DNA of 64,000 nt from a virus. The notes under the pieces were generated by a model. It worked only from the letters and a program-made list of their open reading frames with translations. It ran no database searches and was not told where the DNA came from. Positions 28,870-64,000 of this stretch are shown one piece after another. The DNA lies in UHGV virus genome UHGV-0167591. The stretch is one strand, 5' to 3'. Both the position numbers and the translations under genes were made by a program. Every line of letters starts with the position of its first letter. Position 1 is the first letter of the stretch.

Positions 28870-28965
28870 CGCTGCTAAACAGGTGGCAGGACGTGACGGG
28901 GTTAGCAGACTGGCGTTAGTGAAACCAGCAGGCCGAAGCCTCCCCATCACGCCCCACCATAATTT
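28870..28965 (-). ncRNA. c4: c4-type antisense RNA region (approximate bounds)
   Basis: ctgctaa at 28872-28878 and 29041-29047 with complementary ttagcag at 28902-28908, the arrangement expected for c4 and its target sites. Confidence 0.4.
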
Positions 28966-29145
28966 GGGCGTAACGCGGTTTTACGGACACAAAAATACCG
29001 CAATATCGGATATCTGCGGTTGTCCGCACTAACATTCAGGCTGCTAAACCCGGTCGCAGAATTTGCTACGACGGCGGAACTATAAGCCTGAACGATTAAA
29101 AGGTCAATATGATGCGAAAAGATAGCATTCGCGACTTAAAAATAC

Positions 29146-29160: not shown

Positions 29161-29231
29161 TTAATTGTATAGTAAATACACAAATGGATCTAATAACCTC
29201 TTTTTTTTAAAGGCGAAAATATGTACCCTAA

Positions 29232-29906
29232 ATGGGTTGTAAGGCAGGTGAGGTTATAATGAGAAAACTATTATTACCGTTATTATTTATGGCTGGGACT
29301 GTTAATGCAGCATCAAGTGTAAAGGAGATTTGTACCGATTATACGAAATACCTTGGGCACGTTTACGGCTTTGCTGTCAGTCAAGACGAATCCATGCGCA
29401 AGAAGTTACTGTCAGATATGAAACGTCTTAAACTTTCTGAAGCGATGGTGCAGCAAGAACTATATAAAGTCGCAACCAACGAAAATGCTAAATATCAATA
29501 TTCTCGCCTATTAAATCCCGACGCAAACGAGATCAATCGAAGCACTTTCGATTATATGGTAAAGGCATGCGAAACCGCTCCTGATTTTGCTATCCCTAGC
29601 TGGGGTGTGCTGGTGGCGAGCAATGCCGTTAATAAAGAAGATGTTGGAAGAAATGGCATTGACTCAATCAGAAATGCCCCAGGAATGCGCCATCAAAGCG
29701 TGCAGAGTACGCTTGAAGAGCGGGCCAGGGGGCCGGGTACAAACTCCCCAATGGGAAACCTCTCACCAGAGGAATTGCAAGAGTATAACCAACGGATGGA
29801 GCAGTATGAGAAAGCGGCACGCGAACAAATGGAACAACAAAAGAACGGCTCACTTAATACCTTCCAGCAAGGTTTAAAGGCGCTTAATTTACCATATGAA
29901 TGGTGA
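29232..29906 (+). CDS. secreted superinfection-exclusion-type protein (P1 Sim-like)
   Basis: Signal peptide MRKLLLPLLFMAGTVNAASS; internal segment IRNAPGMRHQSVQSTLEERARGPGT shared with Sit. Confidence 0.5.
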   Translation: MGCKAGEVIMRKLLLPLLFMAGTVNAASSVKEICTDYTKYLGHVYGFAVSQDESMRKKLLSDMKRLKLSEAMVQQELYKVATNENAKYQYSRLLNPDANEINRSTFDYMVKACETAPDFAIPSWGVLVASNAVNKEDVGRNGIDSIRNAPGMRHQSVQSTLEERARGPGTNSPMGNLSPEELQEYNQRMEQYEKAAREQMEQQKNGSLNTFQQGLKALNLPYEW

Positions 29907-29957
29907 ATATATGGTGGTTAACTAATTAAAATATTAATATCCAAAGGAGATAAATTA

Positions 29958-30434
29958 ATGCACATCAAACGATTTTTTCTAATTCTTGCTTTGCTTACTC
30001 CTTTTTCGTCAATGGCAAATGTAAGCAAATGGTCAACCAGCGAGACTCATGGTGTTCGTTCTTATGCTGTTTCCAGCAAAGATAATTATACGCTTACATT
30101 TGAGTGCGATGTTGGATTTAATAATACGGATCCCAATCAAGTAGGAACACGACTACTCACTCTCATGAAAACAGAACCTGGCGGTGAGTCATTTGATGCT
30201 AAAAAAGAACAAATAACGCTGAAAGTTGGTGATGATGAATATCCTATCAGTTCTATCGGTTCCTCTGTGGGTGATAGTTACTGGTATGGTTTCTGGTCAG
30301 ATACCCCTGATATGGAAGTTAAAACATTCGATGCATACGTAGACGGAAAAAAAATCGCAACATTTACGCTACGTAAGGCCGCAGAGCTTTTCAACGCGGC
30401 ACCTAAAGATGGCTGCCTGAAGCGCGCAAAATGA
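29958..30434 (+). CDS. secreted protein of unknown function
   Basis: Signal peptide MHIKRFFLILALLTPFSSMA; about 38 percent G+C by eye. Confidence 0.45.
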   Translation: MHIKRFFLILALLTPFSSMANVSKWSTSETHGVRSYAVSSKDNYTLTFECDVGFNNTDPNQVGTRLLTLMKTEPGGESFDAKKEQITLKVGDDEYPISSIGSSVGDSYWYGFWSDTPDMEVKTFDAYVDGKKIATFTLRKAAELFNAAPKDGCLKRAK

Positions 30435-30436
30435 CC

Positions 30437-39194: not shown

Positions 39195-42100
39195 TTGATG
39201 AATGACGTTACAGTTGTCACATCAGTTACTTACCCATCGCCCGAGTCACTGGCTCTGGTGGCTGATGTGCAATATCACGAACCATATCTGTCAGCCGCGC
39301 TAAACCGAAAATTCAGGGGAATTGTTGACCCAGGATTTTATGCCGGTTTCCTGCCGAAGCCTGGCGGTGGGATGAACCTGTTAATCACCTCACTGGATGG
39401 TGATAAAACCGCTGGCGCGGCGTCAGTGGATATTGGCGAATTCTATCAGGTAACTATTCAACACCGTAAGGATATCTCCCTTGCACTTAGTGCAGGCAAA
39501 AAATATGCAATTGTGCTGAAGGGAAGATACCTTCTTGGAGAAGACACCTATCAGGTTAATACCGCCTCACATATTCATGCGGCTGAATTTGTCGCCAGAA
39601 CCTATACCGATTCATATCAGTTAGGAGATGGTGAGCTGCTTGTTTGTACGGTGAATATCCCTGCCGGGGTATCTGCCATTACCCAAGAGATGATTGATAC
39701 ATCAGAGCGTATCAACCGCACGATTGGCATTGAAATTTCAGACTCTGTAACCAGCAGCAGAAGCGATGTCGCTGCAAGTTCTCTGGCAGTTAAAAAAGCC
39801 TACGATCTGGCGAAAAGCAAGTATACGGCGCAGGATGCAAGCACAACGCAAAAGGGGTTAGTTCAGCTCAGTAGCGCAACTGACAGCGACAGCGAAATAA
39901 TGGCGGCTACCCCTAAAGCCGTTAAGTCTGTAAAAGATCTGGCTGATACCAAAGCGCCAATAGAAAGCCCGAGTCTGACAGGAACGCCAACTGCGCCGAC
40001 GGCAACGCAAGATACAAACAATACGCAGATCGCAAATACAGCCTTTGTTAAGGCAGCTATAACTGCACTTATCAACGGTGCTCCGGGAACACTGGATACG
40101 TTGAAAGAAATAGCGGCTGCGATCAATAACGACCCGAATTTCAGCACAACTATCAACAATGCCCTGGCTCTCAAAGCGCCTTTGGCAAGCCCTGCATTAA
40201 CGGGAATCCCTACTGCGCCTACCGCTGCACAGGGCACAAATAATACGCAGATCGCTACGACTGCTTACGTACGGGCTGCTATATCTGCATTGGTCGGCTC
40301 ATCACCAGAAGCTCTTGATACCCTGAATGAGCTTGCAGCAGCACTTGGCAATGACCCGAACTTTGCGACAACAATGACCAATGCGCTGGCAGGCAGACAG
40401 CCTCTGGATGCAACTTTAACCGCGCTCGCTGGCCTTGCGACTGGTGCAAACAAACTGCCTTATTTCACCGGTAAGGATATGGTAGCTCAGACTGATTTAA
40501 CGTCAGTTGGTCGCGATATTCTTGCTAAAACAAGTGTCCTTGCTGTTATCCAATACCTTGGTTTAAGAGAACTCGGCACCAGCGGCGAAAAGATCCCCCT
40601 GTTGAGCACGGCTAACACATGGAGTGCACGCCAGACTTTCAACGGTGGGATCACCGGTGCGCTGACAGGGAACGCCGATACCGCAACGAAATTAAAAACA
40701 GCGCGGAAGATTAACAACGTTTCATTTGACGGTTCGGCGGACATAACGCTGACTCCTGCGAACCTTGACGTTACCAGCCTGACGTTTATGAAGCACAATG
40801 GAATAATCCCAACCACTGACAATCTTGAATCCTATGGTCCAGAAGAAAAATATCTTGGGACGTGGTCATGCCCGTCACAATCCACTGCAAAACCAGAGTC
40901 TGGTTACCCTGAAGATAAAGGAAATGGGGTTCTGGAAGTATTCAATGCTGGTCGCTTTCACTGCACACAACGCTACACCACCCGAACCGGTAATATTTAC
41001 ATTCGGATGCTTGATGCAGAATGGAACCCAGCCAGTCCAACATGGAGTGCATGGAGAGTTATTACAAGCGGGACTCGACCATTAAGCACGTCAATTGACC
41101 TGAATTCTTTAGGTGGCGCGGAACACCTGGGAATATGGCGCAATAGCAGTACATCAATAGCCTCATTTGAACGTCATTTCCCGGAGGAAGGGAGTTTTGG
41201 GCAGGGTGTTCTGGAAGTCTTTGAAGGCGGTCTGTACGGGATAATGCAACGCTATACGACCCGCCGTGGGAATGTATATGTTCGCTGCCTTTCTGCTACA
41301 TGGAATGCAGAGAACCCACAGTGGGAGCCGTGGTCAAGAGTAGGCCATCAGTCAGAGTGTCGTTATTACGAAGGGGATTTAAATGTTCTAACCGACCCCG
41401 GTATTTACAGTGTTACAGGAAAGGCAACAAACGGTCCGATGCTGGACACCGTTGGCGCGACACTACTTGGGATACTGGAAGTAATCAGACGTTTTGATGG
41501 TGTGTCTGTCTGGCAGCGTTACACAACTACAGGGAAATCAGAAACTACACAGGGACGCACTTTTGAGCGCGTCTACGCCGGGAGCAAATGGACCGAATGG
41601 CGAGAAGTATATAACTCCTTTTCGTTGCCTCTGAATCTGGGCATCGGTGGCGCAGTGGCAAAACTATCCAGTCTGGACTGGCAGACCTACGATTTTGTGC
41701 CGGGCAGTCTGATAACCGTGCGGCTTGATAACATGACCAACATTCCCGACGGTATGGACTGGGGCGTCATTGATGGCAACCTGATAAACATCGCAGTTGG
41801 TCCGAGTGATGATTCCGGTGCGGGGCGCTCAATGCATGTATGGCGCAGCACTGTAAGTAAAGCGAACTACCGCTTTTTTATGGTGCGTATTTCAGGAAAT
41901 CCGGGCAGCAGAACGATCACGACAAGACGAGTGCCAATTATCGACGAAGCCCAGACATGGGCAGCGAAGCAAACCTTCAGTGCTGGCCTTTCTGGTGAGC
42001 TGTCCGGCAATGCGGCTACAGCTACAAAGCTGAAAACCGCACGAAATATTAATGGTGTCAAATTTGATGGTTCCAGCGATATAAATATTAATACGCTGGT

Positions 42101-42866
42101 ATCCAGGAACCGCGTCACTGCATTAAGCGGGAGTGAGAAGGGGACGCCTGGTATTCAGATGTATGAGGCATATAACAATGGCTACCCTTACGCCTATGGC
42201 AATGTGCTTCATCTTACGGGGGTATCCGCAACAGGAGAAGGTGAGTTACTCATTGGCTGGAGTGGAACCAGCGGTGCTCATGCGCCAGCATATATCCGCT
42301 CAAGGCGGGATACAAATGATGCTAACTGGTCTGAATGGGCGCAGCTTTATACGACAGCACATAAACCATCCGCTGGTGATGTTGGTGCTTTACCAATATC
42401 CGGTGGCACTATTACAGGCGGTTTAACTGTTGATGGGGAAGTTATTTCAAGGTCAGCAAACGGTTATCGCATCGTATGTGGGAACTATGGATTCTTTATC
42501 CGAAATGATGGCAATTTCACCCATTTCATGTTGACCAACTCCGGTGACAGTATGGGGGAGTGGAATAGTTTTAGGCCATTCTATATTCAAAATTCCACTG
42601 GTGGAGTCACTATTGGGCATGGATTAACTGTTGGCGGACAAGTTGTGCCAAGTAACTACGGTAATTTCGACGGGCGTTATGTGATGGATGTTCGCCTGGG
42701 CACACGTGTTGTTCAGACCATGCAAAAAGGCGTGATGTATGAGAAATCAGGCCATGTAATTACAGGGCTTGGCATTGTCGGCGAAGTTGATGGCGATGAT
42801 CCGGCAGTATTCAGACCTATACAAAAATACATTAATGGCACATGGTATAACGTCGCACAGGTGTAA
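39195..42866 (+). CDS. S: tail fibre protein S (constant part joined to variable part Sv in this orientation)
   Basis: 1223 aa with repeated fibre modules (QTFNGGITG...ATATKLKTAR...FDGS); cix site inside at 40546-40571. Confidence 0.8.
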   Translation: MMNDVTVVTSVTYPSPESLALVADVQYHEPYLSAALNRKFRGIVDPGFYAGFLPKPGGGMNLLITSLDGDKTAGAASVDIGEFYQVTIQHRKDISLALSAGKKYAIVLKGRYLLGEDTYQVNTASHIHAAEFVARTYTDSYQLGDGELLVCTVNIPAGVSAITQEMIDTSERINRTIGIEISDSVTSSRSDVAASSLAVKKAYDLAKSKYTAQDASTTQKGLVQLSSATDSDSEIMAATPKAVKSVKDLADTKAPIESPSLTGTPTAPTATQDTNNTQIANTAFVKAAITALINGAPGTLDTLKEIAAAINNDPNFSTTINNALALKAPLASPALTGIPTAPTAAQGTNNTQIATTAYVRAAISALVGSSPEALDTLNELAAALGNDPNFATTMTNALAGRQPLDATLTALAGLATGANKLPYFTGKDMVAQTDLTSVGRDILAKTSVLAVIQYLGLRELGTSGEKIPLLSTANTWSARQTFNGGITGALTGNADTATKLKTARKINNVSFDGSADITLTPANLDVTSLTFMKHNGIIPTTDNLESYGPEEKYLGTWSCPSQSTAKPESGYPEDKGNGVLEVFNAGRFHCTQRYTTRTGNIYIRMLDAEWNPASPTWSAWRVITSGTRPLSTSIDLNSLGGAEHLGIWRNSSTSIASFERHFPEEGSFGQGVLEVFEGGLYGIMQRYTTRRGNVYVRCLSATWNAENPQWEPWSRVGHQSECRYYEGDLNVLTDPGIYSVTGKATNGPMLDTVGATLLGILEVIRRFDGVSVWQRYTTTGKSETTQGRTFERVYAGSKWTEWREVYNSFSLPLNLGIGGAVAKLSSLDWQTYDFVPGSLITVRLDNMTNIPDGMDWGVIDGNLINIAVGPSDDSGAGRSMHVWRSTVSKANYRFFMVRISGNPGSRTITTRRVPIIDEAQTWAAKQTFSAGLSGELSGNAATATKLKTARNINGVKFDGSSDININTLVSRNRVTALSGSEKGTPGIQMYEAYNNGYPYAYGNVLHLTGVSATGEGELLIGWSGTSGAHAPAYIRSRRDTNDANWSEWAQLYTTAHKPSAGDVGALPISGGTITGGLTVDGEVISRSANGYRIVCGNYGFFIRNDGNFTHFMLTNSGDSMGEWNSFRPFYIQNSTGGVTIGHGLTVGGQVVPSNYGNFDGRYVMDVRLGTRVVQTMQKGVMYEKSGHVITGLGIVGEVDGDDPAVFRPIQKYINGTWYNVAQV
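40546..40571. promoter_or_regulatory. cix-type inversion crossover site (left)
   Basis: ttatccaataccttggtttaagagaa at the outer edge of the inverted repeat; half-sites resemble gix/hix. Confidence 0.6.
40556..40700. repeat. left inverted repeat of the invertible segment
   Basis: About 145 bp, near-identical to the reverse complement of 45160-45304. Confidence 0.7.
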
Positions 42867-42869
42867 TTT

Positions 42870-43397
42870 ATGCAGCATTTAAAAAATATTAAGGCAGGGA
42901 ATCCAAAAACAGTTGAACAATATCAACTGACAAAAAATTTCGACGTTATCTGGTTATTTTCAGATGATGGAAAAAACTGGTATGAAGAGGTAAAGAATTT
43001 TCAGGAAGACACAATAAAGATTGTTTACGATGAGAATAATATTATTGTCGCCATTACTAAAGATGCATCAACGCTTAATCCAGAGGGGTTCAGTGTCGTT
43101 GAAGTCCCTGATATTACCGCCAACCGACGAGCTGATGACTCAGGTAAATGGATGTTTAATGACGGTGCCGTGATTAAGCGGATTTATACGGCAGACGAAC
43201 AGCAGCAACTGGCGAAGTCAAAAAAGGCAGCTTTGCTTTCCGAAGCTGAATCCGTGATTTTGCCGCTGGAACGCGCTGTCAGGTTGAATATGGCAACAGA
43301 TGAGGAGTGTAGTCGACTGGAAGCCTGGGAGCGTTACAGCGTTCTGGTCAGTCGCGTGGATGTCACAAATCCAGAATGGCCTGATAAACCAGAATAA
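42870..43397 (+). CDS. U: tail fibre assembly protein U
   Basis: 175 aa directly after S. Confidence 0.65.
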
Positions 43398-43455
43398 TCA
43401 TTATAGCCAGATGCACTGGAGGAAGTAGATATCTCCAGTGCTCCATATGTTGGGC

Positions 43456-44058
43456 TTACGCCTCTGGCAGTTCAGGCCAGGTGACATCCGGCGCAGTGCT
43501 GGTATCCGTTGACGTTATCGCGTCAATATAATCCAGCACGGCGTTTAGTCGGGTGGATTCCGTTTGCGTCAGCTTCCGCCCGGCCTGTAATTTCAATTGA
43601 ATTAGACTAATAGAAGCAATTGCAGCATCAATCAATGACTGGCGCTGTGCTTCTGCCGCTTCTACTGCGGCATTGTGTTGTGTCTCGGTTTCTGTCACCC
43701 ATTTCTCACCATCCCATTTATCATATGGCGTTAACGGGGCGATAGTGGTTGTGTTTTCAGGATAGTCGCCCGGTGCTGTGATTTCTTTGGCGTCACCCGT
43801 TTCGGTGTTATAGACGATTTCACCGCGATGGTCTGGCACATATTCCCATGAGTTAAAATCCGATGAGCGGCAGATTGTATAGCCAGCCTTATGTGTGCCT
43901 GGTGCATCTAAACAAGAACATGCCGGGATACCGACACCAGCAGCAAGATATTCAGTTGATGTGGAAATATATTCCCGCGTCTCGCCATCATAGTTATAAA
44001 CTGTAATATCCCCAGCCTCTATTGCAATAAAGCTACTATTTAAAACCGCTGTATTCAT
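43456..44058 (-). CDS. alternative tail fibre assembly protein U'
   Basis: 200 aa, convergent with U, downstream of Sv' on the opposite strand. Confidence 0.65.
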   Translation of the reverse strand: MNTAVLNSSFIAIEAGDITVYNYDGETREYISTSTEYLAAGVGIPACSCLDAPGTHKAGYTICRSSDFNSWEYVPDHRGEIVYNTETGDAKEITAPGDYPENTTTIAPLTPYDKWDGEKWVTETETQHNAAVEAAEAQRQSLIDAAIASISLIQLKLQAGRKLTQTESTRLNAVLDYIDAITSTDTSTAPDVTWPELPEA

Positions 44059-45272
44059 TACGCAGCCCTCACGATATAGTTAAACGCATTGTTGATAGGT
44101 CTGGTATCAACAGGGGTTACTTCAACGTAATTTTCCGATGCGCCGGAATCGTTATTTACCGCAACACTGGATGGTGATTGTCCTATTAAAATCGCATCGG
44201 TTATATAGATACTGCCAGGACTTACGGTATATGTTGTTCCTCTTGCCCAGAACTGACCAACTTTAGGTTGCTGCTCTGAAAGTAGAGCACGACTGGTATC
44301 AATTCCCCGTCCATCATCCCAGCCACGAATAAACACGCCACGCAAATCAGGTAATTTCCCGGTAGGGTATACCTTGGCAAGCAGAGGATATTTAGCCATA
44401 TCAAATGCAGCACCATTGCATTTCAGCCACCCCGTCGGAGGCGTGGCGGAAGGCCACGGCAAGGGAACGCCCACGGGAATGATTTCGATATTTGCGCTAC
44501 CGTTAAATGATACGCCGCTGATTGCACGAGCGGTTTGTAGCTTTGTAGCCGTTGCAGCATTGCCAGTCGTATTTTGATTTCCCGTAGTGTTAACGCCAGG
44601 CAAGTTAATATTTGCAGTCCCATTGAATGACACGCCGCCTATAGTTCTTGCGGTTTGCAATTTTGTTGCAGACGCCGCATTTCCTGTAGTGTTCTGGTTT
44701 CCTGTTGTATTTACACCAGGAATCGAATCTTTAGATGTATAGATTTTCGCCCATTCTGACCACTCGGCAGTCGTTACATCTCTTCGAGAACGGATATAAC
44801 TTGGAGCATGTGCACCACTTGTGCCACTCCAGCCAATCAGGAGTTCCCCCTCCCCGACAGAGGTTGCACCTTTAAGATGAACAACGTTTCCGTATGTAGT
44901 GGGATAACCATTATTGCTAACTTCATACATCTGGATGCCCGCTGATGCTCCCTGTGTGGCACCTGTTAAGGCGGTAACACGCCCGCGACCAACGAGAGTA
45001 TTGATACTAATATTTTTGGTTCCATCAAAGGACACACCATTAATACTGCGCGCTGTTGCCAGTTTTGTCGCGGTTGCCGCATTACCTGTGGTGTTCTGGT
45101 TTCCTGCGGTGTTTACACCAGGGAGGTTGATGTTTGTAGAGCCATCAAATGCCACACCACCGATCGTGCGGGCAGTTTTTAATTTCGTCGCGGTATCGGC
45201 GTTCCCCGTCAGCGTTCCGGTGATCCCGCCGTTGAAAGTCTGGCGTGCATTCCATGTGTTAGCTGTGCTCAA
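44058..45272 (-). CDS. alternative tail-fibre variable segment Sv' (promoterless here; fused to the constant part only after inversion)
   Basis: Same fibre repeat modules as S; its 5' end lies inside the right inverted repeat. Confidence 0.7.
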   Translation of the reverse strand: MSTANTWNARQTFNGGITGTLTGNADTATKLKTARTIGGVAFDGSTNINLPGVNTAGNQNTTGNAATATKLATARSINGVSFDGTKNISINTLVGRGRVTALTGATQGASAGIQMYEVSNNGYPTTYGNVVHLKGATSVGEGELLIGWSGTSGAHAPSYIRSRRDVTTAEWSEWAKIYTSKDSIPGVNTTGNQNTTGNAASATKLQTARTIGGVSFNGTANINLPGVNTTGNQNTTGNAATATKLQTARAISGVSFNGSANIEIIPVGVPLPWPSATPPTGWLKCNGAAFDMAKYPLLAKVYPTGKLPDLRGVFIRGWDDGRGIDTSRALLSEQQPKVGQFWARGTTYTVSPGSIYITDAILIGQSPSSVAVNNDSGASENYVEVTPVDTRPINNAFNYIVRAA

Positions 45273-45304
45273 CAGGGGGATCTTTTCGCCGCTGGTGCCG
45301 AGTT
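45160..45304. repeat. right inverted repeat of the invertible segment
   Basis: Reverse complement matches 40556-40700 with a few substitutions. Confidence 0.7.
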
Positions 45305-45328
45305 CTCTTAAACCAAGGTTTAAGATTG
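45303..45328. promoter_or_regulatory. cix-type inversion crossover site (right), overlapping the cin stop
   Basis: tcttaaaccaaggtttaaga, near-palindromic around central AA/GG. Confidence 0.6.
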
Positions 45329-45880
45329 AAATGATGATGCCGGAAACTTTTTATAAAGCGTGGACATAGCCACATCATAGATGATTGCAACCTGTTTACG
45401 GGGGATGCCATTTTCTAGCAATCGTCGCATTTGCTGCCATGTCTCTTCCGGGTATTTAGGCCGACGGCCTCCTATTCGCCCCTCCGCGCGAGCTGCATCA
45501 AGCCCAGCGCGTGTACGTTCGACGATAAGTTCGCGTTCCATTTCTGCCAGCGCCCCCATTACGTGAAAGAAAAAGCGCCCCATTGGTGTACTGGTGTCGA
45601 TGGAGTCAGTGAGACTCCGGAAGTTAATGCCTCTGTCACGCAGCTCTTCCACCAGCACAACTAAGTGACGCATGCTGCGCCCAAGACGATCTAACTTCCA
45701 TACGACCAGGGTGTCACCTCTGGAAAGCATACGCAGAACCTTTTTTAACCCAGGGCGTTCAGCCTTTTTGCCGCTCGCCTTATCCTCAAAAATTAGCTCA
45801 CATCCTGCGCTTTCAAGGGCATTTCGTTGCAAAGCAGTGTTTTGTTCATTTGTTGATACGCGTACATAGCCTATTAGCAT
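45320..45880 (-). CDS. cin: serine recombinase / DNA invertase Cin (Hin/Gin/Cin family)
   Basis: 186 aa; N-terminal catalytic motif MLIGYVRVSTNEQ, C-terminal helix-turn-helix. Confidence 0.9.
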   Translation of the reverse strand: MLIGYVRVSTNEQNTALQRNALESAGCELIFEDKASGKKAERPGLKKVLRMLSRGDTLVVWKLDRLGRSMRHLVVLVEELRDRGINFRSLTDSIDTSTPMGRFFFHVMGALAEMERELIVERTRAGLDAARAEGRIGGRRPKYPEETWQQMRRLLENGIPRKQVAIIYDVAMSTLYKKFPASSFQS

Positions 45881-45992
45881 ATTTTCTGCTCACTATCGTT
45901 ATTTATAGCAAGCTGCGGATTTTAATTAACAAAAACCAGTGTGTGTGGAAATCACAAAGTGCATACCGTTTCCCAGTGATGTTTAACTCACC

Positions 45993-46356: not shown

Positions 46357-46686
46357 GTGCTTGACACACAGGAATTAGCTCCAGTTGCTATTGCGCTCCT
46401 GCTTTCAGTAATTGGTGGGATAGGCACGTTCCTGATGGATGTCCGAGACGGTCGTCAGTCTGGCAATTTGTTGGGATTGGTTACGGAGATCTTTGTTGCA
46501 GTGACAGCTGGCGCGGTGGCGTACCTATTGGGGCAACACGAGGGCTGGGAGTTATCAATTACGTACTTAATGGTAACGATAGCCAGCAATAACGGTCATG
46601 AGGTGATTTCAGGGATGAAACGAGTGAATATCGATAGCATTCTGAATGTTCTTACAAGTTTGGTGAAAAAGGGAGGCGGGAAATGA
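46357..46686 (+). CDS. lydA: holin (P1 LydA-like)
   Basis: 109 aa with hydrophobic transmembrane segments and a charged C-terminus. Confidence 0.55.
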   Translation: MLDTQELAPVAIALLLSVIGGIGTFLMDVRDGRQSGNLLGLVTEIFVAVTAGAVAYLLGQHEGWELSITYLMVTIASNNGHEVISGMKRVNIDSILNVLTSLVKKGGGK

Positions 46687-47126
46687 TTGGCTGGGGTGTA
46701 TGCGCTCTTGCGTTAGCCTTAGCCGATCGCTATTTGCTAAAACGCAAGGACATCACGAATTTAGAGCTTGGCGAAGTGGAAATTAAACCGGGCTTCATCC
46801 GGGTGCCGTTCAAATACCGGTCCAAATTTCCTTTTTTGCGCGGCGCAACGGTCAGGTATTGGATCCGCGATGTTCAGAAGCCGACGACAGTGATTGAAGG
46901 CGAGCAACGTTGTCTGACATCGGCTGAACAGGGCGAAAACAGCGAATGGTTATACATACCCACTGAATATATGGGTAAAGGAGAACGGCTGTGGCATTTC
47001 AACGTCATGGTTACGCATGGCGACTCGTTCATTAACCCGTTGTATCGGATTTTCCCTGTTACTCAGCAAATCCGCAGAAGTTACGTAATAAATCTCGCAC
47101 AGGATGTGTCAGATGACGAAAAATAA
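46683..47126 (+). CDS. lydB: antiholin (P1 LydB-like)
   Basis: 147 aa, overlaps the holin stop. Confidence 0.5.
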   Translation: MIGWGVCALALALADRYLLKRKDITNLELGEVEIKPGFIRVPFKYRSKFPFLRGATVRYWIRDVQKPTTVIEGEQRCLTSAEQGENSEWLYIPTEYMGKGERLWHFNVMVTHGDSFINPLYRIFPVTQQIRRSYVINLAQDVSDDEK

Positions 47127-47715
47127 GTATGCAACGGTCGATTTTGACCAGGTTAATGAAAAGGGGCTGAAATCCCTTATCGCGGCGATCAATAAAACCG
47201 GTGTTACGGTAATTGAGGTTGACTCCAGCAACCGCGCAACAACGAAAGATGGCGTTAAAGTTAAAACCGCAAAGCTGGTTCTTAACGACGGACAAATTCT
47301 TGCCATACAGGTAAACGATACTGGCGATATATCGTCTGTGAGGCTGAATGGAAAAGCTATTCCTAACGCTCAGTCGCCGGATATCAAGACGCTTGGTACC
47401 GTCATGGGGCAAGCGGCCCGCAAAAACTCCGCAAAATTCCAGAAATCACTGATCGCCAAAGCGAAACGTGTTGCCAATCCGGTAGACAAGAAACCGGCAG
47501 TAAAATCCAACTTTCAGCGCCTGCAAGAGGCAAAACAGCGGAATGCTCAGGTGGTTGCCGCTTATAAATCAGCGCAGAACTCGGTGTCTTTCAATCAACA
47601 GCAGATCACTGATTTGCGGGCGAAGCTGGATAAGGAGACAGGCCGACTCAATAACGAAAAGGCCCGAAATGGCGAACTCAAACGCCGTCTTAAGCAACTG
47701 AAAGCAGGAAATTAA
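47104..47715 (+). CDS. DarA-fragment homolog (P1 Hdf-like)
   Basis: 203 aa; AARKNSAKFQKSLIAKAKRV parallels NLAEKNSAKFQRAQKKKKALV in the next gene. Confidence 0.5.
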   Translation: MCQMTKNKYATVDFDQVNEKGLKSLIAAINKTGVTVIEVDSSNRATTKDGVKVKTAKLVLNDGQILAIQVNDTGDISSVRLNGKAIPNAQSPDIKTLGTVMGQAARKNSAKFQKSLIAKAKRVANPVDKKPAVKSNFQRLQEAKQRNAQVVAAYKSAQNSVSFNQQQITDLRAKLDKETGRLNNEKARNGELKRRLKQLKAGN

Positions 47716-47716
47716 C

Positions 47717-49636
47717 ATGGAACAGTTCAATATCAATAAAGGGGTGACGATTAAGCCTGGGCTTGACGTGCTTCCCCCGCCGGTGACTGATGATGAATAT
47801 CGCGCATTAATGGCCGGTGAGGACCGCTATCTGATGACGGAATCCAACACGCTGGAGGAAATCGAGGCTACGTTCTTCTATGACACGCCGATCCACTGGT
47901 GTGCTACGGATTTACTGGAGGCGATTAGTTCTACTCGTTTGCAGTTACACCGGACCATGCAGGCATTTGTCCGGGCATTGAACCAGAAGTTGAATGGTAC
48001 AGGAATCTCTGCGGGGAGTGATAAAACGGGTGATGTGGCCCAGAGCGGCGCGCGAGCGATCGGCGGCGCTGAAATTGGCCGGGCGCGTAACGTTAACGGG
48101 CTGCCGGTCCTGCCAGCCATTATTCCGCTCAGTGATGGTCAGACTATCAGCATTCTGTTTCATAGCCCGACGGCGGAAAACCGGATCACAAATAGCGATA
48201 CGCTGGTTGCTTTCCAGTTCTTACTGAATAAAAAAGACGTTACTCACACCGTTGCGCCGATGAGTGGACGTGATATGACGCTGGCGCAGGTCACCATGAA
48301 ACTTGCCAACCTTGCAGAGAAAAACTCGGCAAAATTCCAGCGTGCGCAGAAGAAGAAAAAAGCCCTGGTTGATGAAATAACCCAGCTACAGGATGACAGT
48401 GACCAGAAAGAGGATGCCATGAGCGACCTCGCGGATCAGGTGGCTGCGGTAGAAGGCCAGAAGGCAGATCTGGAGCAGAAAATTAACGCGGTTGCTTCGG
48501 AAGCGGATTCTCTTTATCAAGAAAATGAGCGTTTGCAGGCGGAGATTGATCAGCTCAATCGCACTGGTGGGCGCGATACCATTGCTCCAGCGGGGATGAC
48601 TGGTGGGCACTCTCGCGCGCTGACGGATCGCCTTGCAAGTATCAAAAATCGTATGCATATGAACGGGGAAGTGACGCTCAGTAATGGTGCATCAATGAAG
48701 CAATTCATTGAGGACGGTGAAGGGTATATCCAGTTAACCGATTCGGATGGCAGCGTGTACATGATCAAGGCTAAATCCATACAGGGTGTGGACATGGCAG
48801 ATGCGATCGGCAAGCTGTTTAAAGCCTATAAAGCGGGTAATGTATCGGAATACCTGGTCCAACCAGAAGAACATAAACCGGAAAAGGTCGAACCTGAACC
48901 AGCGGAGGATACCGGTAGCTCTTCGCCTGAACCAGAAGTCTCTGTAGGTGCATATCGATATGCCCTGCAAATGCGTCCGGCGGCCCCTGGCGCAATACCT
49001 GAAGGTAACAAAGCAATTCTGCCGCGCCCTGATGAAGGTGACCCGTATTATGAATATGCACGCTACGGCATTGCTACTTACGATACCCCGCTTTCTGATC
49101 AGCAAATGAGTGAGTACGACCTGAAGTTATTGCCTCGCGAGGATTCTTTCGACTTCCTGGCGAAGACACTTGCTAATGGTCCGTTTGGCAAATATGCACA
49201 AAAAGCTCTGGAGCTGGCCACCAGCTCACCAGACGAGTTCCGCGTAATGCTGAAAACTCAGTTTCAAAAAACTTTCCTCAATATTGCGTTTCCTGGGGGC
49301 GCTGGCACCGAGAAAATGGTGCAGAGCATGATCAATGCATTGCAGGCCGAAGTCGGTGAGATTACTCAGCCAGAACCGGCCCCGGCACAGCCTGATGAAA
49401 CGGTTAGCGAAGCAGATGCAGAGGCTAATAAAGCCATTGAATATCTCAATAACGTGATGGATATGCAAAGCACTGACATGGCGGAGATCCGTAACGCTCG
49501 GGGCAATGTCCGGGAAGCGATTGCAGCCCTTCAGGCTGCCGGACGTTTTGAGGAAAACGAAGAGCTGGTTAACGGCGCAGCTCGCCACCTGGCTGATCTG
49601 TTGGTAGCAATCCAGAAAGCGGGGGTAGCGGCATGA
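47717..49636 (+). CDS. darA: virion antirestriction protein DarA-like
   Basis: 639 aa (the size I recall for P1 DarA); coiled-coil central region; position next to cin. Confidence 0.55.
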   Translation: MEQFNINKGVTIKPGLDVLPPPVTDDEYRALMAGEDRYLMTESNTLEEIEATFFYDTPIHWCATDLLEAISSTRLQLHRTMQAFVRALNQKLNGTGISAGSDKTGDVAQSGARAIGGAEIGRARNVNGLPVLPAIIPLSDGQTISILFHSPTAENRITNSDTLVAFQFLLNKKDVTHTVAPMSGRDMTLAQVTMKLANLAEKNSAKFQRAQKKKKALVDEITQLQDDSDQKEDAMSDLADQVAAVEGQKADLEQKINAVASEADSLYQENERLQAEIDQLNRTGGRDTIAPAGMTGGHSRALTDRLASIKNRMHMNGEVTLSNGASMKQFIEDGEGYIQLTDSDGSVYMIKAKSIQGVDMADAIGKLFKAYKAGNVSEYLVQPEEHKPEKVEPEPAEDTGSSSPEPEVSVGAYRYALQMRPAAPGAIPEGNKAILPRPDEGDPYYEYARYGIATYDTPLSDQQMSEYDLKLLPREDSFDFLAKTLANGPFGKYAQKALELATSSPDEFRVMLKTQFQKTFLNIAFPGGAGTEKMVQSMINALQAEVGEITQPEPAPAQPDETVSEADAEANKAIEYLNNVMDMQSTDMAEIRNARGNVREAIAALQAAGRFEENEELVNGAARHLADLLVAIQKAGVAA

Positions 49637-49998
49637 CACTATCAGCTATTGAGTTAATGGATCTCAGCGATAAGTTGGATGCTCTGATGTCCAAAGCGGC
49701 TACCGCGAGTGGCATGGAGTTGCTGGATATCAGCGATGAAATTGACCAGATCATGCAACAGATGGGGTACGGTGTGTCCGGCGGCAGTAGTGGCGAGGAA
49801 AAACAACCTTCGGTACATGATGGTGTGCCAAAACTGGTTGCTGATTTCCTGGCTGATAAATTCGTCGATCAGAGCACCGATGCATTTATCGGTACCTTGC
49901 AGGATTTGAGTCAATATGTTGGCACATACATCGACCTGGACCAGGTTAAACAGCACACGGCGGCATGGATAGCCGCCAACATTAAAGAGGCAGCATAA
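49633..49998 (+). CDS. small dar-operon protein (DdrA-like)
   Basis: 121 aa, overlaps the darA stop. Confidence 0.4.
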   Translation: MTLSAIELMDLSDKLDALMSKAATASGMELLDISDEIDQIMQQMGYGVSGGSSGEEKQPSVHDGVPKLVADFLADKFVDQSTDAFIGTLQDLSQYVGTYIDLDQVKQHTAAWIAANIKEAA

Positions 49999-50010
49999 GG
50001 CGTAACAGGG

Positions 50011-59303: not shown

Positions 59304-62300
59304 ATGAACAAGCTATCTATGGGGGTGTTTCGCTGTTCAAGTGTCAGCGAAATATTGAAATACATTAGGGCAATAACATCTCACCGAGCGCCGATTAAAT
59401 ACGGCGTGGAAAAGGTGGAAGGCAAAAGCTATGACCGACTGCGCCGTGAGGCGAATCAGAAGGCGATAGATTTGCTTAATTCGCTGGTGGACGGCGCGAC
59501 ACTGACAGATGAACAGCGCCAGATCCTGGCTGGGTACACCGGTGAAGGCGGCATTGGCGGGTCCGTCTCCGAATATTACACACCAAAGCCGATCGCTGAA
59601 GGTGTCTGGGAGATCATGAAGCTCTACGGCGCGGACGTAGGTAACACTCTGGAACCATCGGCGGGAACCGGCGTTTTTAATGAGACAAAACCGGTTGGTA
59701 CGGTGATGACCGCGACTGAGATCAGCAGTGTTTCCGGTCGTATAAACCAGCTGTTGCACCCGGAAGACAGCGTACAGATTTCTCCGTTCGAACAACTGGC
59801 TGTAAGCACGCCTAACGATTCATTCGACCATGTTGTGGGTAACGTTCCGTTCGGTGGTCGTGATAACACACGCAACATCGATAAGCCTTACGCAGAAGAA
59901 ACGGACATGGGTTCTTACTTCATGCTCCGCATGCTGGACAAGATAAAGCCAGGCGGATTCATGTGCGTGATTGTGCCGCCGTCCATTGTTTCAGGTTCAA
60001 ACATGAAGCGGTTACGCCTGCGCCTATCACGGAAAGCTGAATTTCTTGGTGCCCACCGCTTGCCTACCGGTACTTTTGACGCAAACGGGACCAGTACAGT
60101 TGTTGATGTGGTGCTGATGCGCAAACATCCGGCAGAGATGGCTGAGAAAATCCCCCTGGTGGATGAAAGCACTCTCGAATCGGCAAATGTGCTTTGGCCA
60201 ACGTTTATTTCTGGCAAGTGGTTTGAAAAGGACGGCCGCCGGTTTGTTCATGGCACCCAGGAAAAGGGCTTCCAGGGGCGTATTGAGGTTCGTGCCGACG
60301 GTCAGATTGATAACCAGGCTCTTAAAGCGAAGCTGATTCATCGTTTCGAAAGCCGTATCGACTGGTCTTTGCTCGATATGGCTGAACCGTCACCGACCGC
60401 AGACGTTGTTGGTGAAGGGGAAATGCGCCTGATTAATGGCGTATGGCAAAAATATGCTGGTGGTCGCTGGATTGAAGCTGATGCCGGGAAGGAACTTAAG
60501 ATCGATGCTGCCAGTTATGGCGCGGATAGCTGGGAGGCTCTTCAGCGTAACCTGACTACAACAGAAGGCCGTCTCGGCATGACATTTACCCAGATGGCAA
60601 ATGTCCGCTATATGTACACCACATCAATCAGCGACGATATGGTGCAGCTGGTGGACTGGATTAACAGCCAGCCTGAAAAATACCGTGAACGCTTGTATCG
60701 CGGGGCGATGATTGGCCGGATGTTAATTGAATATCAGGACATGAAGGCCGCCGGGCATAGTGCTGAACAAATCGAACAGCAGCGCCTTTCTCTGGTATCC
60801 CGTTTGCAGGCAGAGATTGACCGTTTTGGTAACCCCGGTCGCGGTCCGATAGCGAAATTGTCGGGGAGCGGTGCGCGCGCCTGGTTTGCTTTCCGTGGTG
60901 CAATTAAGCTGGATGGCACTATTTCTGACGAGCTGACAGGGAAGCTGGTTACGCATGATTCCAGCGCAAGTTATGACTCCACCAGCTATCAGGACACCCT
61001 GCGTTATCTCTATAGCGATCTCACCCGCGATCCAATCCAGCTCGATGATTTCCGCCTTGCGTTTACCGGCGAACTGCCAGCCAGTGATGAAGAGTTGCTT
61101 AATTTATTGGCCAGCACCCCTGGTATTGCGGTTTCACCGTATGGCGGGATTGTTCCGTTCGCCCGCGCCACCAGCGGCGACATTAACGAGATAGTGGCTC
61201 CAAAACAGGAATTCCTCGCCACACTCCCCGACGGTCCAGTAAAGAACAACGTCCTTAATCAGCTGGCAGCTATCGAAGAGAAGCGCATCAAGACGCCAGC
61301 AGAGAATATCCGGTTTAAGCTCAATAGCCGTTGGTTCGACCGTTCCGTCATTCTGGAATTTTTGCAGGAAAACGGCTATCCGGATCTGCGCTATGTGCAG
61401 TCAGTGCAGCTGGAAGGCGACGAAATGGTTTCTGACACCTATCACGGTGGTGATGGTCTGTTCGTCGGGCACCGATACGGTGTCGTCCAGCGCAAGGATA
61501 AAGAAACAGGTGAGATTCGCTACGAGTGGGACCGTAAATCAGGTGAAAACGCGACCGGGTTCCCGGCACAGCTGGAAAAGTATCTCAATGGTGCGCGTAT
61601 CGGTGGCAAAGATAGCGCGACGGCGAACGGCTACCGCGAGCAGATGGCACTGCTTGAGGACCAGTTCAATAAGTGGATCAAGACGCACGATCGCTACGAT
61701 GAGCTGGTTGCCAAATACAACGATGTGTTCAATAGCAATATCCCGTATGAACACTCTGGCGATCCGCTTGGGTTGAAGGGATTAAGCGGTAAGCGCCAGC
61801 CATTTGATTACCAGAATAGCGAGGTGCGCCGACTGTCCGAAGATGGGCGCGGCATCCTGGGCTTCGGCACCGGGCTGGGTAAAACCACGACCGCGCTGGC
61901 GCTTGAGGCGTTCAACTATGAGAACGGTCGCTCTACCCGTACTGCGTATGTAGTGCCTAAATCAGTGCTGGAAAACTGGTATTACGAAGCAAAAGAATTC
62001 CTGAGTGAAGAGGCATTCAGTAACTACTTGTTCGTCGGTCTTGATGTGCTGATGGATGGCGATCAGATTCGCCAGGTGCCGGTGCTCAATGAGAACGGTA
62101 AACCTGTTCTTGGTACTGATGGCACTCCAGTTATGCGCGATGCTCTTAAGCTGGCAGATGAAGCCACTATCACGGCGCGGATGAACGCGATCCCGCACTC
62201 AAACTACCGTGCAGTCGTGTTTACCAAAGAACAATACGCCCGCATTCCGCTACGTGATGACACCGTAGATGAGCATGCACAAGACATGCTTTATGACTTC

Positions 62301-64000
62301 GTTGCCGCCGGGCGCGTAGCCAGCGCAATGGATTCCGACTCCCATCGTAAAGAGGCGGCGCGTCGCCGGGTATTGTCGGAGTATTCAGATACCGGTACCG
62401 AAAAAGCAGAGAAATATCCGTACTTTGAGGATATGGGCTTCGATAGTGTGATCGCCGACGAAGGCCACAACTACCGCAATAGCTATAAAAATGGTCGCGA
62501 AGCGTCACAACTGGCCTATCTGCCCACCAGCGCGGTGGCGCAATCGGCGCGGGATATGGCAATCAAAAACGCGTACCTGATGAAAAAGAATGGCGGGCGC
62601 GGGCCGGTTCTCCTGACTGCAACGCCAGTCGTTAACACCCCGATCGATGCATACAACATGCTTTCTCATGTTCTGCCGAAGGAATACTGGCAGAAGATGG
62701 GGATCTACGGTCCTGATGACTTCGTTAAATTCTTCGGCAAGACCAGGCTGGAAACGGTACAGAAAATCAGCGGTGAAGTTGAAGAAAAAATGGCGCTGGT
62801 GGGCTTTGAAAACCTTGATGCGCTGCGCGGTATATTCCATCGCTGGGTAACGCTTAAAACGGCGGAAGACGTTAAGGATACCGTGGAGATCCCGGAGCTG
62901 GACGAACACCAGCAGGATGCACCACTTACTGAAGAACAACTGGCGGCGTATGAAGAATTGCGTCAGCAGGCGGAAGCGGCGGCCAAAGCCAACAATGGCG
63001 TAACGACCTCGGTCAATGAAGACGGCGTGATTGAGCACGAGAAAGCCCGTCCGATCTTCTCAATAATCAGGGATATGGACCGCGTATGTACTGACATGGA
63101 CCTGTACTATCGCCGGATCACCTATCGTTTCCTGCCGGAGTACGCCGATGCGGTGCAGCAGCTGGCGGACAGTTTGCCTAAACAAGCCACCAGCGAAGAC
63201 GACGACAGTGATGATTCAATCACGCAGCAATCGCAATACTCCCTGATAGATAAGGGCGAGTTTATTCAGTTGCAGGTTCCGGAAGCGTTCGAGCAGGAAG
63301 TGAATAAGCGCCTGGCCAGGTTTGGCATTGACGAACAGACCGTAACTCACCCCGTTACGCCCAAATACGCGAAGCTGATTGCCACGCTGAAGGAGTTTTT
63401 CCCGGAAGGTAAGCAAATCATCTTCACCGATGAAAAATCGCAGCACCAGAAGCTCAAGCGCATTATCTGCAATGCTCTTAACCTTGAACCTTCAAAGGTG
63501 GGGATACTGAATGCTCAGACGGTTGCCGAGGCAGGTAAAACCGGTAAGAAACTGAAAGCGGTTAAACCGCCGAAAGAGTTACCGGATGAACCAACAGATG
63601 CACAGATAGCGAAATACAACGAGCAAATGGCTCTGTATGACGCCTATATCGCGCAGCAAAATGAAATGTCGTTGGGCGGTCTGGAAAAGATTGCAGCCGA
63701 CTTCCAGGAGGGCCGGACTCCGATCATCATCTGCAACAAAAAGGCAGAGGTGGGTATCAACCTGCATCGAGGAACGACTGACATCCATCATCTGACGTTG
63801 CCATGGACTCCAGCCAGTATTGCGCAACGAAACGGTCGCGGTGCCCGAGTTGGCTCCAACCGTGCAAGCGTTCGCGTTCACTACTACTGCGGCAAGGGGT
63901 CTTTCGATGAATACCGACTGAAGACGCTGAAGCGTAAAGCAGGCTGGATCTCCGATATCCTCCGTTCAGATAAGTCAGAAATGGAGAACGCCGACGCCAA
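59304..64000 (+). CDS. darB: DarB-like giant methyltransferase-helicase, 5' part only (runs past window end)
   Basis: Open frame from ATG 59304 to the window end (at least 1565 codons); N6-adenine MTase motifs (EPSAGTGVF, VVGNVPFG), Walker A GFGTGLGKTTTA, DEGH box DEGHNYRN. Confidence 0.75.
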   Translation, partial: MNKLSMGVFRCSSVSEILKYIRAITSHRAPIKYGVEKVEGKSYDRLRREANQKAIDLLNSLVDGATLTDEQRQILAGYTGEGGIGGSVSEYYTPKPIAEGVWEIMKLYGADVGNTLEPSAGTGVFNETKPVGTVMTATEISSVSGRINQLLHPEDSVQISPFEQLAVSTPNDSFDHVVGNVPFGGRDNTRNIDKPYAEETDMGSYFMLRMLDKIKPGGFMCVIVPPSIVSGSNMKRLRLRLSRKAEFLGAHRLPTGTFDANGTSTVVDVVLMRKHPAEMAEKIPLVDESTLESANVLWPTFISGKWFEKDGRRFVHGTQEKGFQGRIEVRADGQIDNQALKAKLIHRFESRIDWSLLDMAEPSPTADVVGEGEMRLINGVWQKYAGGRWIEADAGKELKIDAASYGADSWEALQRNLTTTEGRLGMTFTQMANVRYMYTTSISDDMVQLVDWINSQPEKYRERLYRGAMIGRMLIEYQDMKAAGHSAEQIEQQRLSLVSRLQAEIDRFGNPGRGPIAKLSGSGARAWFAFRGAIKLDGTISDELTGKLVTHDSSASYDSTSYQDTLRYLYSDLTRDPIQLDDFRLAFTGELPASDEELLNLLASTPGIAVSPYGGIVPFARATSGDINEIVAPKQEFLATLPDGPVKNNVLNQLAAIEEKRIKTPAENIRFKLNSRWFDRSVILEFLQENGYPDLRYVQSVQLEGDEMVSDTYHGGDGLFVGHRYGVVQRKDKETGEIRYEWDRKSGENATGFPAQLEKYLNGARIGGKDSATANGYREQMALLEDQFNKWIKTHDRYDELVAKYNDVFNSNIPYEHSGDPLGLKGLSGKRQPFDYQNSEVRRLSEDGRGILGFGTGLGKTTTALALEAFNYENGRSTRTAYVVPKSVLENWYYEAKEFLSEEAFSNYLFVGLDVLMDGDQIRQVPVLNENGKPVLGTDGTPVMRDALKLADEATITARMNAIPHSNYRAVVFTKEQYARIPLRDDTVDEHAQDMLYDFVAAGRVASAMDSDSHRKEAARRRVLSEYSDTGTEKAEKYPYFEDMGFDSVIADEGHNYRNSYKNGREASQLAYLPTSAVAQSARDMAIKNAYLMKKNGGRGPVLLTATPVVNTPIDAYNMLSHVLPKEYWQKMGIYGPDDFVKFFGKTRLETVQKISGEVEEKMALVGFENLDALRGIFHRWVTLKTAEDVKDTVEIPELDEHQQDAPLTEEQLAAYEELRQQAEAAAKANNGVTTSVNEDGVIEHEKARPIFSIIRDMDRVCTDMDLYYRRITYRFLPEYADAVQQLADSLPKQATSEDDDSDDSITQQSQYSLIDKGEFIQLQVPEAFEQEVNKRLARFGIDEQTVTHPVTPKYAKLIATLKEFFPEGKQIIFTDEKSQHQKLKRIICNALNLEPSKVGILNAQTVAEAGKTGKKLKAVKPPKELPDEPTDAQIAKYNEQMALYDAYIAQQNEMSLGGLEKIAADFQEGRTPIIICNKKAEVGINLHRGTTDIHHLTLPWTPASIAQRNGRGARVGSNRASVRVHYYCGKGSFDEYRLKTLKRKAGWISDILRSDKSEMENADA

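Follow-up and report, generated by a model that had tools for sequence, protein, structure and literature searches.

What does the giant open reading frame (ORF) that runs off the end of a 64,000-nt stretch of the virus genome UHGV-0167591 encode, and how might its product act for the element carrying it? A preliminary description of this stretch (hereinafter the window, whose position numbers are used throughout) had proposed a "DarB-like" protein combining an N6-adenine methyltransferase with a DExH helicase, quoting the segments GLGKTTTA and DEGHNYRN, in an uninterrupted frame of at least 1565 codons that continues past the window end. We examined the part concerned, namely the 4697 nt from 59304 to 64000, and conclude with high confidence that it constitutes the 5′ 69% of darB from a temperate phage of the P1/P7 type, kept as an IncY-type plasmid prophage in Escherichia coli, and that its product has the anti-restriction role of DarB.

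Identity and integrity of the terminal frame

The frame lies on the + strand in frame 3, where the last stop codon directly precedes nt 59295 and the following 1568 codons are free of stops up to nt 64000. The first ATG, at 59304, has the sequence AAGGA ahead of it and leaves exactly 1565 codons that are still open at the window end, as had been claimed. With the base composition of the window (a stop probability of 0.050 per codon), a stop-free run of this length is expected by chance with a probability of about 1e-35, and the longest such run in the other five frames within 59304–64000 reaches at most 184 codons. The supposition that the ORF track omitted the frame owing to its missing stop proved correct: the lister leaves out ORFs running off an end, and the frame is missing from its output.

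Over all 4697 nt the segment aligns as a single ungapped piece with darB of P7 (99.1% nucleotide identity) and of P1 (98.1%), and its start codon coincides with the annotated darB start in both phages. At the protein level, residues 1–1565 are 99.6% identical to DarB of P7 (AAQ07489.1) and 99.2% identical to that of P1 (YP_006479.1), both of the genus Punavirus, with six and 13 substitutions, respectively, and no indels. The best PHROG family, of 2278 positions, is likewise matched end to end over these residues. Moreover, the entire window runs collinear with the P7 record between about 79 kb and 16 kb, in the opposite orientation, and differs from it only in short variable segments. We found no evidence against the identification as darB. 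Hence, the "DarB-like" label can be sharpened: judged by its sequence, the window gene is darB itself, the ortholog of the P1/P7 gene and the archetype of the DarB family rather than a distant member of it. It is an ordinary natural P1/P7-type copy of an already known gene; the genetics of darB go back to 1987, and its sequence became available with the P1 genome in 2004. The reference darB comprises 6768 nt or 2255 codons, the final 690 of which fall beyond nt 64000, and the preliminary description was thus right in placing the 3′ part outside the window.

The nearest copy in a plasmid collection is that of the E. coli plasmid pF16EC0267-1 (CP088422.1; IncY; from human blood), which differs at only 7 of the 4697 nt and in four amino acids (99.9% nucleotide identity). 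The natural P1-like IncY plasmid prophage pMB5646_3 (NZ_CP103660.1) shows 99.5% nucleotide identity over the darB segment, and both plasmids carry a full-length, 2255-codon darB followed by ulx and lxc. Such elements are common, the region being matched in 709 of 5426 complete E. coli genomes (about 13%), almost always on plasmids.

What weighs against reading the present copy as a working darB is that its last 690 codons are outside the window, and a pseudogene—truncated, chimeric or otherwise disrupted in this 3′ third—would go undetected there. Precedents for such a disruption may be seen in some P1-like phage records that annotate the darB region as several ORFs (e.g., four "hypothetical proteins" in vB_EcoM-813R1) and in one close E. 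coli plasmid, where an InsQ/TnpB family gene is annotated inside the matched 8-kb region and the match falls into two pieces. Nevertheless, 1565 codons pass without a stop, all methyltransferase and ATPase motifs are intact in the visible part, the dN/dS of this part is 0.046 against P7 and 0.054 against P1, and the gene is intact at 2255 codons in four of the four full-length relatives checked (P1, P7, pMB5646_3 and pF16EC0267-1), including the nearest one with its seven nucleotide differences. A dN/dS of about 0.05 together with intact relatives therefore renders a pseudogene unlikely, and we consider this explanation very improbable. Accordingly, the copy looks functional and its last 31% is presumably intact.

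Within the visible part the protein differs from DarB of P1 and P7 by point substitutions only. These include a private adjacent pair, D436Y/K437M (GATAAG to TATATG at nt 60609–60614, codons 436–437), which lies in the domain-less middle region and is absent from P1, P7, pMB5646_3 and pF16EC0267-1. A 29-nt tag spanning the TATATG variant had no exact match in viral, genome or metagenome contig collections, and the pair may be genuine or may reflect a local error in sequencing. We see only a slim chance that D436Y/K437M alters which restriction systems are countered, or that the 3′ third or the cargo beyond ulx–lxc differs from all described P1-like elements (e.g., by a new C-terminal module or new defense or anti-defense cargo), and nothing that we observed points there.

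Domains of the visible part and their distant relatives

The visible part of DarB (Table 1) begins with a capsid-targeting sequence, MNKLSMGVFRCSSVSEILKYIRAITSHRAP; in P1 DarB, the first 30 residues suffice to send a reporter protein into the capsid (PMC9024508). This is followed by a helical region matching LPD36, a domain described by Iyer et al. (PMC5512222) for which no Pfam model exists; its GxGU motif is also kept in the homologs from phage D6 and from Thermus and Leptospira phages. The two catalytic modules come next. A domain search recovered matches above the Pfam gathering scores to N6_Mtase (residues 90–291), Eco57I, SNF2-rel_dom, ResIII and Helicase_C (residues 1455–1517), and the methyltransferase motifs I (EPSAGTG) and IV (NVPF) are found at residues 117 and 180, in agreement with the N6-adenine methyltransferase domain claimed earlier. 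Both of the quoted ATPase strings are also located in frame, namely the Walker A string GFGTGLGKTTTALALE, with GLGKT at residue 857 (nt 61872–61886), and the DExH string VIADEGHNYRNSYK, with DEGH at residue 1052 (nt 62457–62468). The observation of a long methyltransferase–ATPase frame is confirmed in full. A match to PHROG 62, annotated as "DNA helicase", spans residues 824–1228. As for the "DExH helicase" label, the DExH motif stands, and the match to SNF2-rel_dom sharpens the assignment to an SNF2-type DExH ATPase, a group whose members, as a rule, move along duplex DNA rather than unwind it (PMC5512222). Indeed, Iyer et al. (2017) treated DarB as the archetype of a "dyad" of polyvalent proteins, in which LPD36 is combined with a gamma-class adenine methyltransferase and an SNF2 ATPase (PMC5512222).

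Outside these modules, scans of residues 1–90 and 301–830 and of the C-terminal 690 residues of the pMB5646_3 protein returned only noise, with E values of at least 0.03 and all scores below the gathering thresholds. Sequence searches against the Protein Data Bank (PDB) found no solved DarB structure. The methyltransferase module hit type I M subunits, its nearest structure by sequence being HsdM, the M subunit of EcoKI (PDB 2ar0/2y7c; E 3e-4 over residues 176–267), and the nearest structure to the ATPase module is the SNF2 ATPase SsoRad54 (PDB 1z63; E 4e-3 over residues 1461–1558), both being very distant.

Type ISP enzymes and some defense systems likewise carry a methyltransferase and a superfamily 2 (SF2) ATPase fused into a single polypeptide. 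This raises the question of whether the protein could instead be a fused restriction–modification (R-M) or defense enzyme, such as a type ISP, type IIG-like, DISARM- or BREX-type methylase–helicase, which the prophage directs against other phages. The helicase lobe does show NCBIfam similarities to DISARM DrmD, DpdE and a Dnd restriction enzyme, but the bit scores fall far short of the curated cut-offs (44.5 versus 610 for DrmD, 31.4 versus 500 for DpdE and 28.5 versus 600 for dnd_restrict_1). Furthermore, Pfam-type scans detected neither a nuclease nor a target-recognition domain in residues 1–1565, the middle region included, or in the C-terminal 690 residues of the pMB5646_3 protein. The likeness to the type I R-M subunit HsdM is limited to an individual domain, and there is neither an HsdS-like specificity partner nor a nuclease. 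Finally, the protein is 99% identical to an anti-restriction factor that has been shown genetically to be packaged into virions (PMC9024508, PMC12810830). We therefore rejected a restriction or defense role of the DISARM, Dpd, Dnd or type ISP/IIG kind, which we regard as exceedingly unlikely.

The same order of LPD36, methyltransferase and SNF2 ATPase recurs in proteins far removed from P1. The orf15 product of phage D6 is 49% identical to DarB, and the DarB-like protein of Thermus phage Lalka27b and gp15 of Leptospira phage LE1 are about 25% identical to it. In the latter two, the dyad starts about 290–450 residues later in the protein than it does in DarB, with extra N-terminal sequence ahead of it. 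Despite this divergence, D6, Lalka27b and LE1 all retain the TP cap, motif I, motif IV (N[VP]P[FY]), Walker A, DExH, motif III and motif VI. The record annotations show that the pairing of darB with ulx is also kept in D6 and Lalka27b (L007 2029–8659; L009 3581–10888), suggesting a dedicated partnership of Ulx with the methylase–SNF2 protein well beyond P1.

How DarB might protect entering DNA

In P1, DarB is a head protein of about 250 kDa, present in about 40 copies per virion and added late in head assembly as the last of the Dar components (PMC9024508, PMC12810830). Its incorporation is helped by Ulx and DdrB, and Hdf and DarA are needed for the packaging of all Dar proteins (PMC9024508, PMC12810830). 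On ejection, the Dar proteins leave the virion together with the DNA, and of these DarB, Ulx and DdrB are required for protection against the type I systems EcoB and EcoK (PMC12810830). This protection acts only in cis, for the DNA of the same virion (PMC12707154), and on permissive hosts plaques form without darB (PMC10695390).

In the model put forward by Iyer et al., the methylase travels along the injected DNA with the motor as its carrier (PMC5512222). Along these lines, we tentatively posit a translocation-coupled adenine methylation of the entering DNA, a mechanism to which we would give somewhat less than an even chance. Injected DarB would first bind the entering DNA; its SNF2-type motor would then track along the duplex; and the fused N6-adenine methyltransferase, in which no target-recognition domain is recognizable, would modify adenines, or otherwise engage type I target sites, before cleavage by the host starts. 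That the SAM-binding and catalytic residues persist at about 25% identity favors a model in which methyl transfer matters.

Several points weigh against this mechanism. EcoK and EcoB recognize different sequences, so that a defense against the two enzymes alike is beyond what simple site-specific methylation can account for. In the literature examined, the biochemical mechanism of DarB is stated to be undefined (PMC11109961, PMC12707154, PMC9009780) and DarB-dependent methylation is not reported. Additionally, plasmid-based darB assays are confounded by a DNA-mediated restriction alleviation that depends on Chi and EcoKI sites (PMC11109961).

The protection against two enzymes with unrelated recognition sequences better fits a block directed at the enzyme family or at the DNA. 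Thus, DarB might protect without catalysis by coating or tracking the DNA and occluding type I sites, or by stalling or displacing EcoK and EcoB via its SNF2 motor, with the methyltransferase fold serving only as a DNA- or adenine-binding module. In reviews, Dar is indeed said to shield or occlude sites and to act in cis only (PMC12602166, PMC12707154), and SNF2 ATPases are known as DNA translocases that can displace proteins (PMC5512222). However, phages of E. coli, Thermus and Leptospira strictly keep motifs I and IV even where identity falls to about 25%, which is hard to explain if catalysis is dispensable, and the approximately 40 copies per virion (PMC9024508) are too few for a stoichiometric coating of about 100 kb of DNA. 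We consider such a non-catalytic protection possible, at roughly one chance in three, and leave what remains beside it and translocation-coupled methylation to other mechanisms.

Genomic setting and the other Dar components

The partner genes had been presumed to lie outside the window. This holds for ulx alone: hdf, darA, ddrA and ddrB are all inside it, between 47113 and 52998, and tblastn with the P7 proteins recovered the Dar partners at full length with 96.7–100% amino acid identity. The whole darA operon, from lydA to ddrB (46357–52998, + strand), is present. Thus, ulx beyond the window end aside, the Dar anti-restriction system of this element looks complete as far as gene content can tell. 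All relatives examined have ulx about 33 nt beyond the end of darB, with lxc next in line.

Just beyond lxc, the cargo of P1-like elements varies. This locus is occupied by the mod and res genes of a type III R-M system (EcoP1/EcoP7) in P1 and P7, by a RelA/SpoT-domain protein in pMB5646_3 and by a GNAT acetyltransferase in pF16EC0267-1 (in the relatives' records, L004 18828–19955, L006 14570–15178 and L001 16639–21494).

Upstream of darB, the portal gene prt (proA in P7), accompanied by pro, is oriented divergently, and the 76-nt prt–darB junction holds the annotated PdarB and the late promoter of the prt–pro operon, LPpro (Table 1). Compared to P1 and P7, a single A is inserted just downstream of the −10 element of LPpro. 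The same A is common to pMB5646_3 and pF16EC0267-1, two independent natural plasmids, and it is therefore a lineage polymorphism; a sequencing error was rejected as its cause.

Table 1. Features of the 64,000-nt window of UHGV-0167591, grouped by subject
Feature	Position (nt)	Strand	Basis and remarks
darB coding sequence, codons 1–1565 of an expected 2255	59304–64000	+	Open frame; P1/P7 identity; runs off the window end
N-terminal capsid-targeting sequence, codons 1–30	59304–59393	+	Identical to P1
Helical N-terminal region matching LPD36	59406–59567	+	GxGU motif (GEGG at residue 80); approximate boundaries
Gamma-class N6-adenine DNA methyltransferase domain, residues 90–291	59571–60176	+	N6_Mtase E 1.2e-8; Eco57I E 1.2e-7
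Methyltransferase motifs EPSAGTG and NVPF	59652–59672; 59841–59852	+	YTP cap at residue 92; kept in distant homologs
Linker/middle region, residues 292–832	60177–61799	+	No recognizable domain; best Pfam E 0.088
SNF2-type DExH ATPase, first lobe	61800–62993	+	GLGKT, DEGH, motif III TATP (residue 1105); SNF2-rel_dom E 1.9e-11; ResIII E 8.7e-6
Helicase C-terminal lobe, residues 1455–1517	63666–63854	+	Helicase_C E 1.9e-6; conserved motif VI QRNGRGAR
prt (portal), divergent upstream neighbor	57518–59227	−	99.5% amino acid identity to P7; annotated as portal in P1
PdarB, predicted sigma-70 promoter	59217–59247	+	Identical to the sequence annotated in P1; prediction carried over from P1
LPpro, late promoter (−22 box, −10) AAGTGACTAGTGTTAAATT	59271–59289	−	Identical to the P7/P1 annotation; prt–darB intergenic
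Op(pro), C1 repressor operator ATTGCCCTAATGTATTT	59358–59374	−	Identical to the P7 annotated site; within the first darB codons
lydA	from 46357	+	P7 tblastn comparison; ahead of hdf
lydB	from 46683	+	P7 tblastn comparison; ahead of hdf
hdf	47113–47715	+	tblastn with P7 protein
darA	47717–49636	+	tblastn with P7 protein
ddrA	49633–49998	+	tblastn with P7 protein
ddrB	50011–52998	+	tblastn with P7 protein
Three tRNA genes	5934–6009; 7442–7517; 7520–7595	−	Anticodons CAT, TGT, GTT
P1-type C4 antisense RNA and a1/b1 target sites	28879–28964; 29033–29085	−	
Segment adjoining the c4/icd/ant immunity region	29161–30435	+	No nucleotide match to P7
Tail-fiber variable region	40745–45933		Patchy 68–88% matches to P7
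cin	45323–45880	−	
Segment after ddrB	53304–54998	−	No P7 counterpart
ORF of 260 aa	53335–54117		93% identical to the C-terminal part of P1 IsaA
ORF of 281 aa	54124–54969		Mechanical call

Chi sites (GCTGGTGG) are strongly over-represented, with 28 in the 64-kb window (12 on the + and 16 on the − strand) against about two expected for a random 8-mer, and eight of these lie within the darB part. EcoKI sites number five in the whole window, with none inside the darB part. An enrichment of Chi in P1, with 11 sites in the full darB, has been reported (PMC11109961).

Elsewhere in the window, the departures from P7 are confined to a few segments. Where the window has the two ORFs after ddrB, P7 has nmpC and P1 has an IS1 with isaA and isaB; the second of these ORFs corresponds to a gene that close plasmid relatives list as a "DUF2829 domain-containing protein". 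The segment next to the immunity region codes for two ORFs of 224 and 158 aa, whose hydrophobic N-termini resemble signal peptides and which take the place of the P7 membrane/lipoprotein genes upf50.0 and upf50.5. The strongly diverged tail-fiber region corresponds to the invertible C segment next to cin; such a variable region, which determines host range, is expected in P1-like phages. The tRNA and C4 regions are typical of the tRNA and immunity regions of P1 and P7, with the CAT-anticodon tRNA sitting where P7 annotates a tRNA-Ile.

As a discovery the gene is of little importance, darB having long been known and being common in E. coli. The mechanism of DarB is a question about a well-studied P1 protein. 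Both of its catalytic modules are conserved across distant phages, which makes experiments on the mechanism worthwhile, in P1 itself rather than via this copy. For the element at hand, the finding means that the window represents a P1/P7-type phage-plasmid with a complete-looking Dar system, and this aids the interpretation of other findings in the same window.

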